Shown: in pieces, positions 203-4,252 of the stretch
Layout: each line of letters starts with the position of its first letter
How positions within the stretch are numbered: the first letter of the stretch is position 1
From: a virus
Lineage: Duplodnaviria; Heunggongvirae; Uroviricota; Caudoviricetes
IMG/VR virus record: IMGVR_UViG_2534681647_000010
Reading direction: 5' to 3' (one strand)
DNA length: 4,335 nucleotides
The notes under the pieces: generated by a model
What the model was told of the DNA's origin: nothing
Seen by the model: the letters and a program-made list of their open reading frames with translations, nothing else
Database searches by the model: none
Program-made: the position numbers and the translations under genes

Positions 203-229
203 AACCCGCTTCGGCGGGTTTTTGTTTTT
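203..229 (+). terminator. Intrinsic terminator at the 3' end of the hok transcript
   Basis: Stem AACCCGC (203-209) pairs with GCGGGTT (214-220) around a TTCG loop (210-213), followed by a T-rich tract (219-229: TTTTTGTTTTT). Orientation is + strand (U-tract downstream of the stem). Confidence 0.6.
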
Positions 230-681: not shown

Positions 682-960
682 ATGGCGCAAAATTCCAGAC
701 TACACAATTCTGATAATTCAGCCGTCTTTGCCAGCAGGCACGGGCGGCGTTCTCATGCATTCAAATCTGACTGGTTCCGGCACGCCCCATGCACTGAAGA
801 ACAGGCCGAATGGCTGATTCAGAACTACCGCAGACGTGGGTATGAGTTTAGGAAAGCCCTCAGCCTCGATTATCGTCACTGGATAATCTACGTCAGGCTG
901 CCGTACTCCGAGCGCCCACCGCGTCCGTCCCGCACATTCCAGCAACGCATCTGGAGGTAA
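682..960 (+). CDS. Hypothetical small basic protein (92 aa), translationally coupled to the downstream DUF968 gene
   Basis: ATG at 682 preceded by GGAG (671-674). The ORF exactly fills the gap between rem and the ydfU-like gene. Its stop TAA (958-960) lies 1 nt before the GTG start at 962 and directly follows the GGAGG (952-956) that serves as the next gene's RBS. Protein is Arg/His/Trp-rich and contains several rare Arg codons (AGA/AGG). No family recognised. Confidence 0.35.
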   Translation: MAQNSRLHNSDNSAVFASRHGRRSHAFKSDWFRHAPCTEEQAEWLIQNYRRRGYEFRKALSLDYRHWIIYVRLPYSERPPRPSRTFQQRIWR

Positions 961-961
961 C

Positions 962-2011
962 GTGCGGGTATTACTTCGACCTGTTCCGGTACCGGAACTT
1001 GGGGTGGTGGTCCTTAAACCAGGCCGTGAATCCATGCAGGTATTCCATAACCCTCGAGTGCTTGTGGAGCCGGAGCCGAAAAGCATGCGCGGTCTGCCGT
1101 CCGGCATCGTCCCTGCCGTTCGCCAGCCGCTGGCGGAGGATAAATCATTACTGCCGTTTTTCAGCAATGAGCGTGTGATTCGTGCTGTTGGTGGCGCTGG
1201 TGCACTGTCTGACTGGCTGTTGCGTCATGTCAAATCCTGCCAGTGGCCTCATGGTGACTATCATCACAGTGAAACCGTTATTCACCGTTATGGTACCGGC
1301 GCAATGGTGTTGTGCTGGCACTGCGACAACCAGCTGCGTGACCAGACATCCGAATCACTCGAGCAACTTGCTCACCAAAACCTGTCAGCATGGATGATTG
1401 ACGTCATTCGTCACGCAATGAATGGCACACAGGAGCGTGAATTATCGCTGGCTGAATTATCCTGGTGGGCGGCCTGCAATCAGGTGGTGGATGCACTACC
1501 TGAGGCAGTAGCGCGTCGTTCGCTGGGATTACCAGCGGAAAAAATCCGCTCCGTATACCGTGAGAGTGACATCGTACCGGGAGAACAGACAGCCATCAGC
1601 ATACTGAAGCAGCGCACAAAAAATATTGCGCTGCCACTTCACGTCCACCAGCAACAAAATCCACCACAGAAAAAAACGGTTGTCAGTATCGCCGTTGATC
1701 CGGAGTCTCCTGAATCGTTCATGAGGCGGCCTAAACGTTGCCGCTGGGTAAATGAGAAATACACGCGCTGGGTAAAGACACAGCCGTGTGCGTGTTGTGG
1801 TAAGCCTGCTGACGATCCGCATCACCTGATTGGTCATGGTCAGGGGGGAATGGGGACAAAGGCCCACGATATTTTCACGCTACCGTTGTGCCGGGAGCAC
1901 CACAACGAACTTCATGCAGACCCGCTGGAGTTTGAGAAAAAGTACGGCTCTCAGATTGAGTTAATTTTTCGTTTTCTTGATCACGCCTTTGCGACTGGCG
2001 TGCTCGGGTAA
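962..2011 (+). CDS. ydfU: YdfU-like prophage protein (DUF968 family) with C-terminal Cys/His-rich HNH-like zinc-finger motif; putative nuclease
   Basis: 349-aa ORF, GTG start at 962 with GGAGG at 952-956, stop TAA 2009-2011. The C-terminal segment CACCGKPADDPHHLIGHGQGGMGTKAHDIFTLPLCREHHNELH (about nt 1787-1915) has CxCC...HH...CxxHHNxxH spacing typical of HNH-type zinc-finger nucleases. Position (after rem, before rusA and Q) and length match the Qin YdfU as I recall it. Confidence 0.8.
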   Translation: MRVLLRPVPVPELGVVVLKPGRESMQVFHNPRVLVEPEPKSMRGLPSGIVPAVRQPLAEDKSLLPFFSNERVIRAVGGAGALSDWLLRHVKSCQWPHGDYHHSETVIHRYGTGAMVLCWHCDNQLRDQTSESLEQLAHQNLSAWMIDVIRHAMNGTQERELSLAELSWWAACNQVVDALPEAVARRSLGLPAEKIRSVYRESDIVPGEQTAISILKQRTKNIALPLHVHQQQNPPQKKTVVSIAVDPESPESFMRRPKRCRWVNEKYTRWVKTQPCACCGKPADDPHHLIGHGQGGMGTKAHDIFTLPLCREHHNELHADPLEFEKKYGSQIELIFRFLDHAFATGVLG

Positions 2012-2023
2012 AAGAGGTGACTG

Positions 2024-2395
2024 ATGCTCATAGATTTGGTTTTACCTTACCCGCCGACGGTGAACACTTACTGGCGACGCCGTGGCAGCACATATTTTGT
2101 ATCAAAAGCCGGGGAGCGTTATCGCCGGGCAGTGGTGCTTATTGTTCGCCAGCAGCGACTGAAATTAAGCCTGTCCGGACGGCTGGCAATAAAAATTATT
2201 GCAGAACCACCGGATAAGCGCCGCCGTGACCTGGACAACATTCTGAAAGCACCGCTGGATGCGCTGACGCATGCGGAAGTGCTCATTGATGACGAGCAGT
2301 TTGATGAAATCAATATTGTGCGCGGTCAGCCTGTGCCAGGTGGACGGCTGGGCGTGAAGATTTACGAAATCAGAGGTGGTAACGATGGCGCGTGA
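2024..2395 (+). CDS. rusA: Crossover junction endodeoxyribonuclease RusA (Holliday junction resolvase)
   Basis: ATG at 2024 with RBS AAGAGGTGA (2011-2019); stop TGA 2393-2395. Protein contains [13 protein letters not shown] near the N-terminus, the acidic core [14 protein letters not shown], a DDEQ segment and GGRL, which match the conserved RusA pattern (E. coli RusA has PDRRRRDLDN ... DDAQ ... GGRL). Confidence 0.9.
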
Positions 2396-2756
2396 TATCC
2401 AGATGGTTCTTGAGCGATGGGGGGCATGGGCAGCAAATAATCATGAAGATGTAACATGGCCCTCGATAGCTGCTGGTTTTAAAGGATTAATCCCGACTAA
2501 AGTGAAATCACGTCCTAAGTGTTCTGATGATGACGCCATGATAATTTGTGGTTGTATGGCACGATTAAACAAGAATAATCAGTATTTGCACGATTTGTTG
2601 GTGGATTATTACGTAGGTGGAATGACATTTATGGCTCTTGCACGTAAGCATAGATGTTCTGATGGGCTTATTGGTAAAAGGCTTTATAAAGCGGAAGGTA
2701 TTATTGAAGGAATGCTTATGGCTCTGAATGTCCGGTTAGATATGGATATGCGGTAG
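2385..2756 (+). CDS. Late-gene antitermination protein Q (short QuuD/phage-82-like type)
   Basis: ATG at 2385 preceded by AGAGGTGG (2373-2380); the track's start at 2376 is a GTG inside that RBS. Stop TAG 2754-2756. [25 protein letters not shown]... and the Cys-rich segments ([19 protein letters not shown]) are consistent with the short Q antiterminator family, to which DLP12 QuuD belongs. Overlaps the 3' end of rusA by 11 nt, as is typical for this operon. Confidence 0.85.
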
Positions 2757-2812
2757 GGATATATAGTGATGAGGGTTATGTTTTCTGTGTTTATAATTAA
2801 CATGTTTATTTT

Positions 2813-2846
2813 TTGATGGTCATGTATTGTGGAAGGTAGATAAAAT
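2813..2846 (+). promoter_or_regulatory. Candidate sigma70-like promoter just downstream of Q (possible late promoter or moron promoter); weak call
   Basis: TTGATG (2813-2818), 18-nt spacer, TAGATA (2837-2842), with TAAAAT at 2841-2846. The region is AT-rich, so hexamer matches are expected by chance; a perfect TATAAT also occurs at 2792-2797 without a good -35. Confidence 0.2.
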
Positions 2847-2847
2847 G

Positions 2848-2884
2848 TTGCCTGGTGAATTGAAAATATTGATAATCAATCTTC
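2848..2884 (+). promoter_or_regulatory. Candidate promoter of the CPBP gene with overlapping 13-bp perfect palindrome (operator-like)
   Basis: -35 TTGCCT (2848-2853), 17-nt spacer, -10 GATAAT (2871-2876). The perfect palindrome ATTGATAATCAAT (2868-2880) overlaps the -10. The element lies about 25 nt upstream of RBS AAAGGAG (2896-2902) and ATG 2908. Confidence 0.3.
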
Positions 2885-2907
2885 ATCATTAAATAAAAGG
2901 AGTGCTT

Positions 2908-3726
2908 ATGTGGATTGTGTTAGTACTGTCACTGTCAACTCTCAGTTGGCATAAGGTAGTGGCTTTTTCATTGTTGACGGTGTCTGTTGTCCTGGCTGTG
3001 CTTAATGATATTATTGATTGGTCGGTGTTATTTTTTGTTGCTACAATCGTTTTTTTTATTATTTTGAAGTTCAACTGGAAATATAACGCCTGGGCTAAAT
3101 CTATATATGAAGTTGGCATAGTTTTATCAGCCATAGCATTATTTTTCCATCTATGGCCAGGGTTTCACAATCCTGTAGTGCTAAATTCTGTTACTGTTGG
3201 CCCTCAAAGTACTCCCTATACAATGTATTTTAATTTTGATAAAGCGCTGGTGCCATTTTTGTTAGTCCTGTGTACATCTTCTTTGTTTAAAAAAGAAGTA
3301 AAATCAGAAGTGTCTTTGTGGAAGTGGGGGGCTCTGTCGCTCTCTGTTCCTCTTATCCTGTTTTTGGCTGTTTTTTTTGGTGGATTAAAGCCAGAGATTC
3401 ATTTTCCTGAGTGGTTGCCAGAGTTTATATTGGCTAATTTGTTTTTTGTGTCTCTGGCAGAGGAATCATTATTTAGAGGGTATATTCAATCACGGCTATC
3501 AGAAGTAACGTCTCCATTGGTTGCATTAATTGTGGCGGCTTTGTTGTTTGGTTTTTATCACTATTCAGGTGGTGCTTTACTTGTATTATTTGCCACGTTA
3601 TCTGGTGTTGTGTATGGATTGTCATGGATGTGGAGTGGGCGTTTGTGGGTTGCCACCCTTTTCCATTTTGGTTTGAATCTGTGTCACTTGTTATTCTTTA
3701 CCTATCCATTTTTAAAACATAATTGA
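2908..3726 (+). CDS. CPBP-family (CAAX protease / Abi-type) intramembrane glutamic metalloprotease; polytopic membrane protein
   Basis: ATG at 2908 with RBS AAAGGAG (2896-2902); the track start at 2902 is a GTG inside the RBS. Stop TGA 3724-3726. The protein is highly hydrophobic with multiple predicted TM helices and carries all three CPBP signature motifs in the correct order: EExxxR (EESLFR, nt 3460-3477), FxxxH (FGFYH, ending at H 3559-3561) and HxxxN (HFGLN, 3664-3678). The gene is AT-rich relative to its neighbours. Confidence 0.85.
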   Translation: MWIVLVLSLSTLSWHKVVAFSLLTVSVVLAVLNDIIDWSVLFFVATIVFFIILKFNWKYNAWAKSIYEVGIVLSAIALFFHLWPGFHNPVVLNSVTVGPQSTPYTMYFNFDKALVPFLLVLCTSSLFKKEVKSEVSLWKWGALSLSVPLILFLAVFFGGLKPEIHFPEWLPEFILANLFFVSLAEESLFRGYIQSRLSEVTSPLVALIVAALLFGFYHYSGGALLVLFATLSGVVYGLSWMWSGRLWVATLFHFGLNLCHLLFFTYPFLKHN

Positions 3727-3806
3727 TTTTTTCTATGGTTTTAAATTTATAAGACTGAAAAATAGCAGGACGTGACATTTGCATGAAAAATATGCACGGC
3801 AAAGCA

Positions 3807-3841
3807 TTTACGTACGTAAAAAATCAGGTATGCTGTTAAGA
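3807..3841 (+). promoter_or_regulatory. Candidate sigma70 promoter at the downstream edge of the AT-rich island; possible displaced pR'-like late promoter
   Basis: -35 TTTACG (3807-3812), 16-nt spacer, -10 TATGCT (3829-3834); predicted start near 3841. An intrinsic terminator follows about 30 nt downstream, giving a short promoter-terminator module. Confidence 0.3.
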
Positions 3842-3867
3842 GTGGTTATTTCGCCGCATAGCTTGAC

Positions 3868-3889
3868 CCCGCCTCTGAGCGGGTTTTTT
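3868..3889 (+). terminator. Intrinsic terminator (short GC stem plus T6)
   Basis: CCCGC (3868-3872) pairs with GCGGG (3879-3883) around loop CTCTGA, followed by TTTTTT (3884-3889). Oriented for + strand transcription; the reverse complement lacks a downstream U-tract. Could end the CPBP transcript, act as a tR'-like terminator, or both. Confidence 0.5.
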
Positions 3890-4012
3890 GTGCCCGCAAA
3901 GTAGCGCAGTGCGTTAAATGTGCTGGTAGTTATTAATACAGGTCTTTCAGCTTGCTGGCTTTTTCGACAAGAGTTATTGGTGTGTCACGTTAACCGGAAA
4001 GGGTAAAAAGAC

Positions 4013-4252
4013 ATGCTGAAACAGCAGGATATGACAGAAACCGCCAGAGTTGTGTTTGATGAATTAAGCGTCACCGAACCGGCGACGGTCGGGGAGATTG
4101 CGCAGAATACGTACCTTTCACGCGAGCGCTGCCAGTTAATACTGACCCAGCTGGTTATGCGGGTCTGGCAGACTATCAGTTCGGTTGTTACAGACGCCTT
4201 CAGTCCTGAAGGCTTTTTTATTTGTGGTAAATGGGCGGCTGGTGGGTGTTAG
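4013..4252 (+). CDS. Hypothetical small soluble protein (79 aa) with HTH-like segment
   Basis: ATG 4013 preceded by GGAAAGGG (3996-4003); stop TAG 4250-4252. The segment ATVGEIAQNTYLSRERCQLILTQL resembles a helix-turn-helix. No hydrophobic TM segment, so it is not a holin. No family recognised; could be a gene remnant. Confidence 0.35.
   Translation: MLKQQDMTETARVVFDELSVTEPATVGEIAQNTYLSRERCQLILTQLVMRVWQTISSVVTDAFSPEGFFICGKWAAGGC

Follow-up and report, generated by a model that had tools for sequence, protein, structure and literature searches.

The window analysed here, a stretch of 4,335 nt from a virus of the Caudoviricetes (IMG/VR record IMGVR_UViG_2534681647_000010), carries a ydfU-like gene of the DUF968 family on its plus strand (positions 962..2011). 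The gene encodes a protein of 349 aa, begins with a GTG start codon that is preceded at a distance of 5 nt by GGAGG, and ends with a TAA stop at 2009-2011. Starting 12 nt past this stop is rusA (2024..2395, plus strand, 123 aa), the gene for a Holliday junction resolvase; that rusA adjoins the ydfU-like gene had been proposed in the sequence-only reading of this DNA, and the assignment is borne out by matches to Pfam RusA (E=7.5e-15) and PHROG 34 (E=2.9e-54). The translation of rusA shows the acidic motifs RRRDLDN and IDDEQ and is 39% identical to the RusA of DLP12. The next gene, for a Q-type late antiterminator (2376..2756, plus strand; Pfam Phage_antitermQ, E=8.7e-52), overlaps rusA by 20 nt, and its product is 84% identical to QuuD of DLP12. 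On the other side of ydfU, a 92-aa ORF of unknown function (682..960, plus strand; PHROG 1212, E=1.5e-36) ends within the ribosome-binding region of ydfU. Because the gap between the two genes is only 1 nt and the stop of the first lies inside the ribosome-binding region of the second, they probably form one operon. Rem was considered as the identity of the 92-aa ORF and rejected, as the ORF is unrelated to K-12 Rem. The three genes ydfU, rusA and Q are thus found in tight packing within the early-right operon, and besides rusA and Q the window also encodes a CPBP protease moron. Scanning the window against Rfam and for tRNA genes gave no matches.

The identification of the ORF at 962-2011 as a DUF968/YdfU-like protein stands. 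Residues 160-346 match Pfam DUF968 (PF06147) at E=7.5e-77, with a score of 257.6 bits against a cut-off of 27.8, and the match extends over the whole length of the profile (positions 1-171 of 171), making the protein a member of the family; it is also 85% identical to K-12 YdfU. An exact database match is WP_001686696.1 (E. coli), and PHROG 96, which is labelled 'HNH endonuclease', covers the full length of the protein (E=6.8e-175). Most complete E. coli genomes contain a relative of the window. In that of O55:H7, the YdfU copy is 90% identical, the DNA identity over the whole window is 96.5%, and the lysis genes come after.

The C-terminal part of the protein (1691..2008, plus strand; residues ~244-349) has a conserved basic lead-in, FMxRPK, and a C-terminal helical extension, and contains the HNH core (1787..1915, plus strand). 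The core consists of CACC at residues 276-279 (nt 1787-1798), DDPHH at 284-288 (nt 1811-1825) and CREHHNELH at 310-318 (nt 1889-1915), and so agrees position for position with the arrangement CxCC...DDPHH...CxxHHNxxH that had been read from the letters at nt ~1787-1915, with H287 and H288 being the very residues that had been named. When the protein was shuffled 20,000 times, 138 shuffles reached the Cys/His density of 11 in 43 residues. Conservation was assessed in 79 family representatives covering the core (clusters at 50% identity), and the catalytic set was intact in 69/79: H288 was kept in 74, D303 in 78, H314 in 72 and H318 in 70. The zinc positions of the core were kept in 71 (C276), 60 (C279), 68 (C310) and 62 (H or C at position 313) of the same 79, and K258, C276, H287, H288, K300, D303, H314 and H318 were invariant in the C-terminal alignment A2. 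As judged from the sequence, the C-terminal Cys/His motif exceeds what is expected by chance, and the conservation of its residues is a stronger argument than the shuffling. The roles of these residues were assigned by alignment to YbcO and to the HNH domain of IscB, together with general knowledge of HNH sites. C276/C279 and C310/H313 would be the ligands of a structural zinc. The predicted general base is H288 (with H287), where the first strand ends; D303 would take the position of the motif Asn, and H314/H318, on the helix, are the predicted ligands of the catalytic divalent metal.

Structure prediction had been suggested as a check for a beta-beta-alpha fold, and the AF2 model gives this fold at residues 285-319, with beta strands at 285-288 and 306-309 and a helix at 311-319. 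The pLDDT exceeds 90 there (~95-98 in the blocks flanking the hairpin loop), and the mean for the full model is 86. A Foldseek comparison of the whole model to the PDB gave nothing at E<=0.001; the best five PDB matches, namely Cas5-HNH, the type I-E HNH Cascade, IscB (twice) and Cap5, were all HNH nucleases, with a best E of 0.44. A profile search of PDB sequences had YbcO (3g27) as its top match, at a marginal E=0.039, and the direct hhalign alignment to YbcO/3g27 gave a probability of 80% and E=1.3e-5 over 47 columns. A single-sequence phmmer search of the PDB returned only C2H2 zinc-finger matches at E~1.6, which we regard as spurious. The PHROG HNH families 131, 7370 and 22514 were matched at E=1.8e-6 to 2.3e-4. 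The C-terminal domains of 26 family members were compared to Pfam, where HNHc_6 was matched by 21/26 (best E=1.7e-8), RecA_dep_nuc by 10/26, YbcO by 5/26 and HNH by 3/26, the secondary matches all being His-Me finger families; the protein studied here matched HNHc_6 at E=1.1e-5 and RecA_dep_nuc at E=0.009. The domain thus combines the features of a His-Me finger, that is, a predicted beta-beta-alpha fold, a His on the first strand, D303 with the helix His, and profile similarity. Also present are the Cys/His pairs flanking the hairpin that mark the treble-clef zinc-finger subclass of HNH proteins (C-x2-C ahead of the first strand and C-x2-C/H at the N-terminus of the helix). These sequence comparisons and the model support the prediction that the C-terminal ~75 residues form a His-Me finger (HNH) domain in which all the catalytic and zinc-ligand positions are intact.

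The N-terminal module (962..1531, plus strand; residues 1 to ~190) was modelled as small beta strands and helices, a zinc beta-beta-alpha unit and a long helix, with a pLDDT of 90.9 for residues 1-160 and of ~93 for residues 160-190 in the full model. Further downstream, residues 226-242 (1637..1687, plus strand) form a poorly conserved linker that is predicted to be disordered (pLDDT <50) and is rich in gaps in alignment A1. The sequence-only reading had also pointed out a second Cys/His cluster near residues 93-121; its positions are exact, with CQWPHGDYHH at 93-102 (nt 1238-1267) and CWHC at 118-121 (nt 1313-1324), and it is conserved in the family. The cluster supplies a predicted four-ligand zinc site (1238..1336, plus strand) made up of C93, H101, C118 and C121, with a hairpin at 105-118 and a helix at 119-125. 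The ligands were kept in 75/77 (C93), 74/77 (H or C at position 101), 76/77 (C118) and 76/77 (C or H at position 121) of the aligned sequences, and the neighbouring W119 and D122 were each kept in 66/77. A beta-beta-alpha unit and four ligands are therefore present in this module without a conserved catalytic His, since H108 is found in only 11/77, and for this reason the second cluster is a predicted structural zinc site and not a second nuclease centre. The N-terminal module taken alone matched no Pfam family, and a Foldseek search of BFVD and the PDB with it gave no meaningful match. The one match among PDB sequences, to halohydrin epoxidase (E=0.27), was put down to chance.

The two fingers of the protein are alike in that each has a CQ-x6/7-C/H knuckle, followed by a hairpin and then by C-W-H-C/H-D-N at the start of the helix. 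It can be hypothesized that YdfU is an internally duplicated His-Me finger in which residues 93-125 are a degenerate, dead copy. The protein would then be a pseudo-dimer with a single active site that recognises branched DNA and nicks one of its strands, so that substrates for RusA are created or prepared, and lambdoid phages would have a two-enzyme module for junction processing that has not been described before. The hhalign comparison of the N-terminal with the C-terminal profile does pick the expected register, but without significance (E=0.15), and that of the N-terminal cluster with YbcO gave E=0.52; a duplicated HNH/YbcO-like finger is thus statistically unsupported, and we consider the whole scenario doubtful.

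Among the closest known systems is YbcO of prophage DLP12 (Pfam YbcO/DUF1364; PDB 3g27). Jablonska et al. 2017 (PMC5714182) grouped YdfU/DUF968 with YbcO in group 7 of the His-Me finger proteins, noted RusA and Q as neighbours and proposed a role in recombination. In our alignment, H288 is paired with the predicted catalytic His of YbcO, in AHIR, and D303 with the Asp of PPDL, and the GTGTK/GMGTK loop and the C-x2-C/H followed by His are paired as well. The genomic slot of YbcO, directly beside rusA and upstream of Q, is also that of YdfU. However, YbcO is a single domain of 96 aa, whereas YdfU adds ~240 N-terminal residues that include the second zinc site. No match of the protein to YbcO/DUF1364 (PF07102) was found at E<=0.1, and those of its relatives that matched (5/26) did so weakly, with a best E of 0.012. 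By these sequence comparisons, YdfU is related to YbcO at the level of the superfamily and is not a member of its family. The nuclease activity of YbcO is itself a prediction only (PMC4999995), and in the searchable literature we found no experiments on either DUF968 or YbcO proteins.

Lambda Rap/NinG belongs to the His-Me finger proteins, as is predicted for YdfU, and its non-essential gene likewise lies in the nin region, on the upstream side of Q. Rap is a branch-specific endonuclease, and experiments have established that it acts on D-loops and junctions. Membership of YdfU in the NinG/Rap family (PF05766) was rejected, there being no Pfam NinG match and the hhalign alignment being limited to a 13-column Cys knuckle with a probability of 10%. 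It is plausible that Rap/NinG is the functional counterpart of YdfU, whose sampled loci are without ninG. The P1 protein Ref (Pfam RecA_dep_nuc, PDB 3PLW) is a phage accessory recombination enhancer and a RecA-dependent HNH nuclease. The similarity to Ref is weak and recurrent, being seen in 10/26 of the C-terminal domains with a best E of 0.0047 and always below the Pfam cut-off, and 3PLW was not among the PDB sequences that the profile search recovered. The N-terminus of Ref is disordered and basic, while that of YdfU is predicted to be a folded zinc module. NinG has been placed in His-Me finger group 24 (PMC5714182), and YbcO has been linked to Ref by FFAS (PMC4999995). The DUF968 proteins of Gram-positive bacteria, with members in Listeria and Staphylococcus, have been described as Orf-HNH fusions (PMC4118853), and they belong, like YdfU, to DUF968 and have a zinc-finger HNH motif at the C-terminus as well. 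An Orf/NinB-like N-terminal domain was sought in YdfU and not detected, as the hhalign alignment of A1 to lambda NinB gave E=0.57 over 11 columns and lambda Orf (1PC6) was absent from the Foldseek lists. Unlike the Orf-HNH fusions, the enterobacterial N-terminal module showed no kinship with any Pfam or PDB entry.

The genomic context was sampled by tblastn of a phage collection together with annotated regions, and the sample is small. In 7 YdfU loci of four genera (E. coli, Shigella, Klebsiella and Yersinia phages), RusA was encoded no more than ~1.3 kb away, and NinG, NinB, NinH, YbcO and YbcN were absent from all 7 YdfU loci sampled. The slot of ydfU is just before Q here and in SfV, mEp390, KpF5 and YeP3, and before lpa in P1. 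The order of the genes varies, being ydfU-rusA here and rusA-ydfU in mEp390 and KpF5. The link to RusA is not obligatory, because both the ydfU of K-12 Qin and the pdcB of P1 stand without a rusA, in the latter case without one nearby.

P1 PdcB is a full-length homologue of YdfU (26% identity over 359 columns, E=1e-39) that shares the N-terminal zinc site and the overall architecture, and its gene lies after phd-doc-pdcA and before lpa. PdcB is without H287, H288, H314 and H318, the rest being kept, and because of this loss it is probably not a nuclease. In P1, pdcB is non-essential (PMC10695390), and a pdcB::kan mutant has been recovered (PMC10067587); since PdcB does not have the catalytic histidines, we discarded this non-essentiality as functional evidence for the protein studied here. 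The loss of these histidines in a full-length clade that includes PdcB does imply that the family is able to persist without catalysis.

With moderate confidence, we propose from the sequence and the model that the role of YdfU is that of a non-essential, predicted metal-dependent DNA endonuclease, acting on recombination or replication intermediates as a two-module accessory protein of the nin operon. The gene would be part of the 'nin' (early-right) operon in a lambdoid prophage of E. coli and would be co-expressed with RusA just before Q. In such a protein, residues ~244-349 would be the zinc-stabilised HNH nuclease domain and residues 1 to ~190 a separate module, built around the second structural zinc site and lacking a catalytic His, whose most likely task would be binding to DNA or to a partner protein; the flexible linker would join the two modules. 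YdfU may then nick or cut D-loops and branched DNA, and would fill the slot in which DLP12 has YbcO and lambda has NinG/Rap. We infer the catalysis, the substrate, the structure specificity and the cooperation with RusA from the position in the nin region.

The PdcB clade, which retains the N-terminal zinc site, the fold and the cysteines while the catalytic histidines are lost, is what would be expected if the protein were instead a non-catalytic DNA-binding or regulatory factor acting before the late-gene activator, with the HNH-like fold serving as a zinc-finger scaffold. The gene does lie directly upstream of the late activator, Q or Lpa, in very different phages, some records label the protein as Q or as a regulator, and a 'phage transcriptional regulator' is mentioned in PMC5714182. 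However, the 'Q' labels seem to have spilled over from the annotation of the adjoining gene, and H288, D303 and H318 are strictly kept here and in 69/79 representatives. As the catalytic residues are kept even where the zinc cysteines are lost, as in Vibrio phage Len, selection appears to be on catalysis and not on a scaffold, and we judge a regulatory role to be unlikely.

A selfish, mobile gene for a homing-type HNH endonuclease, lodged in the variable nin region, is another candidate, and the different order relative to rusA in mEp390 and KpF5 fits this, as does the mosaicism suggested by the lower identity of YdfU than of the window DNA to O55:H7. HNH genes are often mobile, and PMC12315714 cautions against deriving function from position. 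Yet the gene keeps the same slot, among the last genes before Q, in phages of Escherichia, Shigella, Klebsiella and Yersinia; it encodes a large conserved N-terminal module of ~190 aa, has no intron or intein context, and is maintained as full-length copies that are catalytically dead, all of which makes a homing origin improbable.

Equally improbable is a nuclease for defence, counter-defence or degradation of host DNA, carried as an accessory gene of the prophage. No PADLOC defence-system model was matched in the window (a Cas6 match of RusA at E=0.007 was dismissed as chance), the protein has no recognisable sensor domain, and its gene sits inside the early-right lytic operon with rusA and Q and not in a separately transcribed island. 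These observations stand against the accessory cargo nearby, consisting of hokD, a SIR2-family gene in the O55:H7 relative and the CPBP protease moron, and against the fact that HNH domains are common defence effectors, with Cap5 and ScoMcrA among the weak fold matches. Less probable still is a packaging-associated HNH protein that stimulates terminase cutting like gp74 of HK97: such proteins are described as widespread in phage packaging machines (Kala et al. 2014, as cited in PMC12315714) and P1 pdcB is two genes upstream of pacA/pacB, but ydfU lies in an early operon upstream of Q, flanked by rusA, Q and the CPBP protease and not by a terminase gene or cos end, with Q, the moron and the lysis genes between it and any terminase, and P1 pdcB is without the catalytic histidines and non-essential (PMC10695390) while pacA and pacB are essential.

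The HNH motif reported here is real but ordinary, and it is not new. Both the HNH assignment and the recombination hypothesis have been published (PMC5714182, PMC4118853), and 'HNH endonuclease' is already the label of PHROG 96 and of RefSeq phage records (SfV orf45, mEp390 gp45 and P1 pdcB), so the statement of the sequence-only reading that the function of DUF968 is still undefined goes too far. Flagging the motif again adds little, because the prediction is already in the literature and in annotation pipelines. What is new is modest: a conserved, non-catalytic N-terminal zinc module without detectable relatives, the loss of the catalytic histidines in a clade including P1 PdcB, and the finding that the YdfU loci sampled carry neither NinG nor YbcO, points that would not surprise specialists. 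Nevertheless, should YdfU prove to be an active nuclease, a 'y-gene' that ranks among the most widespread in E. coli prophages would gain a function, and YdfU would be the third, non-homologous occupant, after NinG/Rap and YbcO, of the nuclease slot in the lambdoid nin region.

The window belongs to a lambdoid prophage of E. coli, shares 96.5% DNA identity with a Qin-like prophage from O55:H7 strains and recurs in part in 4781 of the 5426 complete E. coli genomes. Its ydfU-like gene (962-2011, + strand), with a GTG start 5 bases after GGAGG, encodes a 349-aa protein that is an exact match to RefSeq WP_001686696.1 and 85% identical to K-12 YdfU. Pfam DUF968 matches residues 160-346 (257.6 bits; cut-off 27.8), and PHROG 96 ('HNH endonuclease') covers the full length (E=6.8e-175). 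Two conserved phage ORFs with functions unassigned in PHROG precede ydfU: a small one (352-612, +; PHROG 340) and one of 92 aa (682-960, +; PHROG 1212), which leaves a single nucleotide before the ydfU start, has its stop codon within the ydfU ribosome-binding region and shows no relationship to Rem, the occupant of that position in K-12 Qin. Downstream, ydfU adjoins rusA (2024-2395, +), with 12 nt between them, and rusA overlaps the Q-type antiterminator gene (2376-2756, +) by 20 nt. Given this tight spacing and overlap, the 92-aa ORF, ydfU, rusA and Q look like one tightly packed operon.

The sequence-only reading had suggested that the protein was probably an active structure-specific or DNA-processing nuclease working alongside RusA, and the Cys/His motifs lie exactly where it had put them: CACC at residues 276-279 (nt 1787-1798), DDPHH at 284-288 and CREHHNELH at 310-318 (ending at nt 1915) in the C-terminal finger, and CQWPHGDYHH at 93-102 and CWHC at 118-121 in a second, N-terminal cluster. 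In an AlphaFold2 model built with a 29-sequence alignment (mean pLDDT 86.2), strands 285-288 and 306-309 and helix 311-319 are predicted to form a beta-beta-alpha unit, with three helices after it. Foldseek found no significant match in the PDB for the whole model; the best five matches, none significant, were all HNH nucleases, with Cas5-HNH Cascade first (E=0.44, probability 0.75), the others being type I-E HNH Cascade, IscB twice and CBASS Cap5. A profile of the C-terminal domain searched against PDB sequences gave YbcO (3g27) as the best, marginal match (E=0.039), followed by IscB, and in a pairwise profile comparison YbcO matched the domain over 47 columns (probability 80%, E=1.3e-5), with H288 paired with the YbcO histidine that falls on the catalytic His of His-Me nucleases in the superposition by Kaur and Subramanian (PMC4999995). 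When 26 domain sequences were scanned against Pfam, the secondary matches were solely to His-Me finger families: HNHc_6 in 21 (best 1.7e-8), RecA_dep_nuc/Ref in 10, YbcO in 5, HNH in 3 and HNH_5 in 2. Sequence and model together lead us to read the C-terminal domain as a predicted zinc-stabilised His-Me finger whose active-site pattern is intact. By homology we infer that H288 would be the general base, with D303 replacing the motif Asn and H314 and H318 as putative metal ligands, and that C276, C279, C310 and H313 would form a structural zinc site.

When the protein was shuffled 20,000 times, a density of at least 11 Cys/His in 43 residues arose in 138 of the shuffled sequences and is thus unusual in itself, but the decisive evidence against chance is conservation. 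Searching 1.84 billion cluster representatives gave 3029 relatives, of which 100 reached E<=1e-30, and full-length homologues extend down to 26% identity. Among the 79 representatives covering the C-terminal core, the catalytic positions are kept in 74 (H288), 78 (D303), 72 (H314) and 70 (H318), and the zinc positions in 71 (C276), 60 (C279) and 68 (C310), with His or Cys at position 313 in 62. The N-terminal cluster is similarly kept in 77 representatives (C93 in 75, H or C at 101 in 74, C118 in 76, C or H at 121 in 76), and the nearby W119 and D122 are each found in 66.

In the model, the N-terminal region (pLDDT 90.9 in the N-terminal model) has a hairpin (105-110/113-118) followed by a helix (119-125), with C93 and H101 before the hairpin and C118 and C121 at the helix start, a predicted treble-clef layout shared with the C-terminal finger. 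The cluster was nevertheless ruled out as a second nuclease centre, because the first-strand H108 is kept in only 11 of 77 representatives, an Arg stands at the position equivalent to H318, and the N-terminal profile was not significant against either the protein's own C-terminal domain (E=0.15) or YbcO (E=0.52). Residues 1 to ~190 matched no Pfam family and no PDB sequence, and gave no meaningful Foldseek match in the PDB or BFVD. In our reading the cluster is therefore a conserved zinc site with a structural role, and the uncharacterised module around it probably serves to bind either DNA or a partner protein. The linker to the HNH domain (226-242) is poorly conserved and modelled with low confidence.

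The phage P1 homologue PdcB (P1 locus L003, 3905-4948) aligns over the full length of YdfU (26% identity, E=1e-39) and keeps the N-terminal zinc site, with PY for HH and CQSCQRDIE for CREHHNELH. The same catalytic loss is seen in three further divergent representatives (P0198, P0220 and P0250), and it thus appears that the YdfU family can persist without catalysis. RefSeq labels PdcB 'HNH endonuclease', an annotation probably wrong as to activity because the catalytic histidines are missing. The pdcB gene has been reported as non-essential (PMC10695390) and a pdcB mutant was recovered (PMC10067587), which says little about the catalytically intact clade. A mainly non-catalytic DNA-binding role for the window protein is the likeliest alternative, and we consider it unlikely. 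The homologue of Vibrio phage Len has lost the C-terminal zinc cysteines and kept the HH, HD and helix His residues, a pattern pointing to selection for the catalytic residues across most of the family, the window protein included.

By tblastn, the protein was found in 186 phage records (Escherichia, Shigella, Salmonella, Klebsiella, Yersinia and Vibrio phages, and phage P1). The order is ydfU-rusA-Q in the window and its O55:H7 relative and rusA-ydfU-Q in mEp390 and Klebsiella KpF5; in SfV a single gene separates rusA and ydfU (rusA-orf44-ydfU-Q), in Yersinia YeP3 two genes do so before ydfU-Q, in K-12 Qin ydfU adjoins Q without rusA, and the P1 homologue pdcB lies in the order phd-doc-pdcA-pdcB-lpa-pacA-pacB. 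Local tblastn placed RusA at most ~1.3 kb from YdfU in seven loci and found NinG, NinB, NinH, YbcO and YbcN absent from the same seven. Since the orders in DLP12 and lambda are ybcO-rusA-Q and ninG-ninH-ninI-Q, YdfU occupies the slot held by YbcO or NinG, respectively, in this small sample. In two records (LR597642.1, Evi; LR597641.1, mEp460_ev081), the homologue is annotated 'Phage antitermination protein Q', which appears to be a mislabel inherited from the neighbouring gene. A selfish homing nuclease seems improbable, and so, to the same degree, does a nuclease serving defence or host degradation; a role as packaging helper is the least probable reading.

Directly downstream of Q lies a gene for a 274-aa CPBP/Rce1-like intramembrane glutamic protease (2902-3726, +; Pfam Rce1-like E=1.4e-19; PHROG 13291), in the 'moron' position, where stx sits in Stx phages. 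Its surroundings (2760-3900) are AT-rich (33-40% GC vs 50-60% in neighbouring genes), with several promoter-like sites upstream (2817-2889) and a GC hairpin and T-run downstream (3868-3883); its role might be self-immunity or exclusion. A 79-aa ORF (4013-4252, +; PHROG 331, function unassigned in PHROG) is likely a pseudogene remnant; its O55:H7 counterpart is annotated as a TrmB-family transcriptional regulator with a frameshift. Judged by alignment to the O55:H7 annotation, the window opens within hokD, of which it includes the last ~134 nt, and a hairpin terminator (203-220) follows; an Rfam scan of the window at the gathering threshold found no hok/sok RNA. In the O55:H7 relative there is an additional 1.8-kb cassette of two genes, a hypothetical protein and an HTH protein (L001 6225-8038), flanked on each side by a copy of a 21-bp sequence (window 204-224) that overlaps the terminator hairpin and T-run. 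This arrangement suggests a hot spot where cargo is exchanged by recombination. Separately, several database proteins (P0146, P0189, P0190, P0191 and P0251) have an SfV-type YdfU N-terminal part, most often residues 1 to ~153 and also 1-115 and 1-272, joined in the same reading frame to the C-terminal portion of a tail protein (tip attachment protein J domains, tail collar or fibre repeats). One such fusion, in a Logan contig (L009, 4785-7208), occupies the usual place of ydfU, behind rusA and a KilA-N gene. The fusions, with their recurrent junction near residue 153, probably arose by large deletions in defective prophages or are artefacts of assembly.

The nuclease proposal is already published, and known as a prediction. 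Curtis et al. (2014) described a C-terminal zinc-finger HNH motif in DUF968 members, with an Orf/NinB-like domain reported for Gram-positive ones (PMC4118853), and Jablonska et al. (2017) assigned DUF968, with YdfU named, to His-Me finger group 7 together with DUF1364/YbcO, listed RusA and Q as genomic neighbours and hypothesized a recombination role resembling that of NinG and RecA-dependent nucleases (PMC5714182). PHROGs-based and RefSeq annotation likewise calls SfV orf45, mEp390 gp45 and P1 pdcB 'HNH endonuclease'; full-text searches found no DUF968 or YbcO protein that had been studied biochemically. The window protein belongs to DUF968 and to the His-Me finger superfamily and is related to YbcO yet outside its family; membership of the NinG family was rejected, as was an Orf-HNH architecture, no Orf/NinB-like domain being detectable. 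Of the earlier proposal, the HNH fold and the intact active site are supported, while we only infer that the protein is active as a nuclease, that it is structure-specific and that it partners RusA. The most likely mechanism, which we hold with slightly better than even confidence, is that the protein would be a non-essential, metal-dependent endonuclease encoded in the nin operon, which may process recombination or replication intermediates and would be positioned by its zinc-containing N-terminal module.
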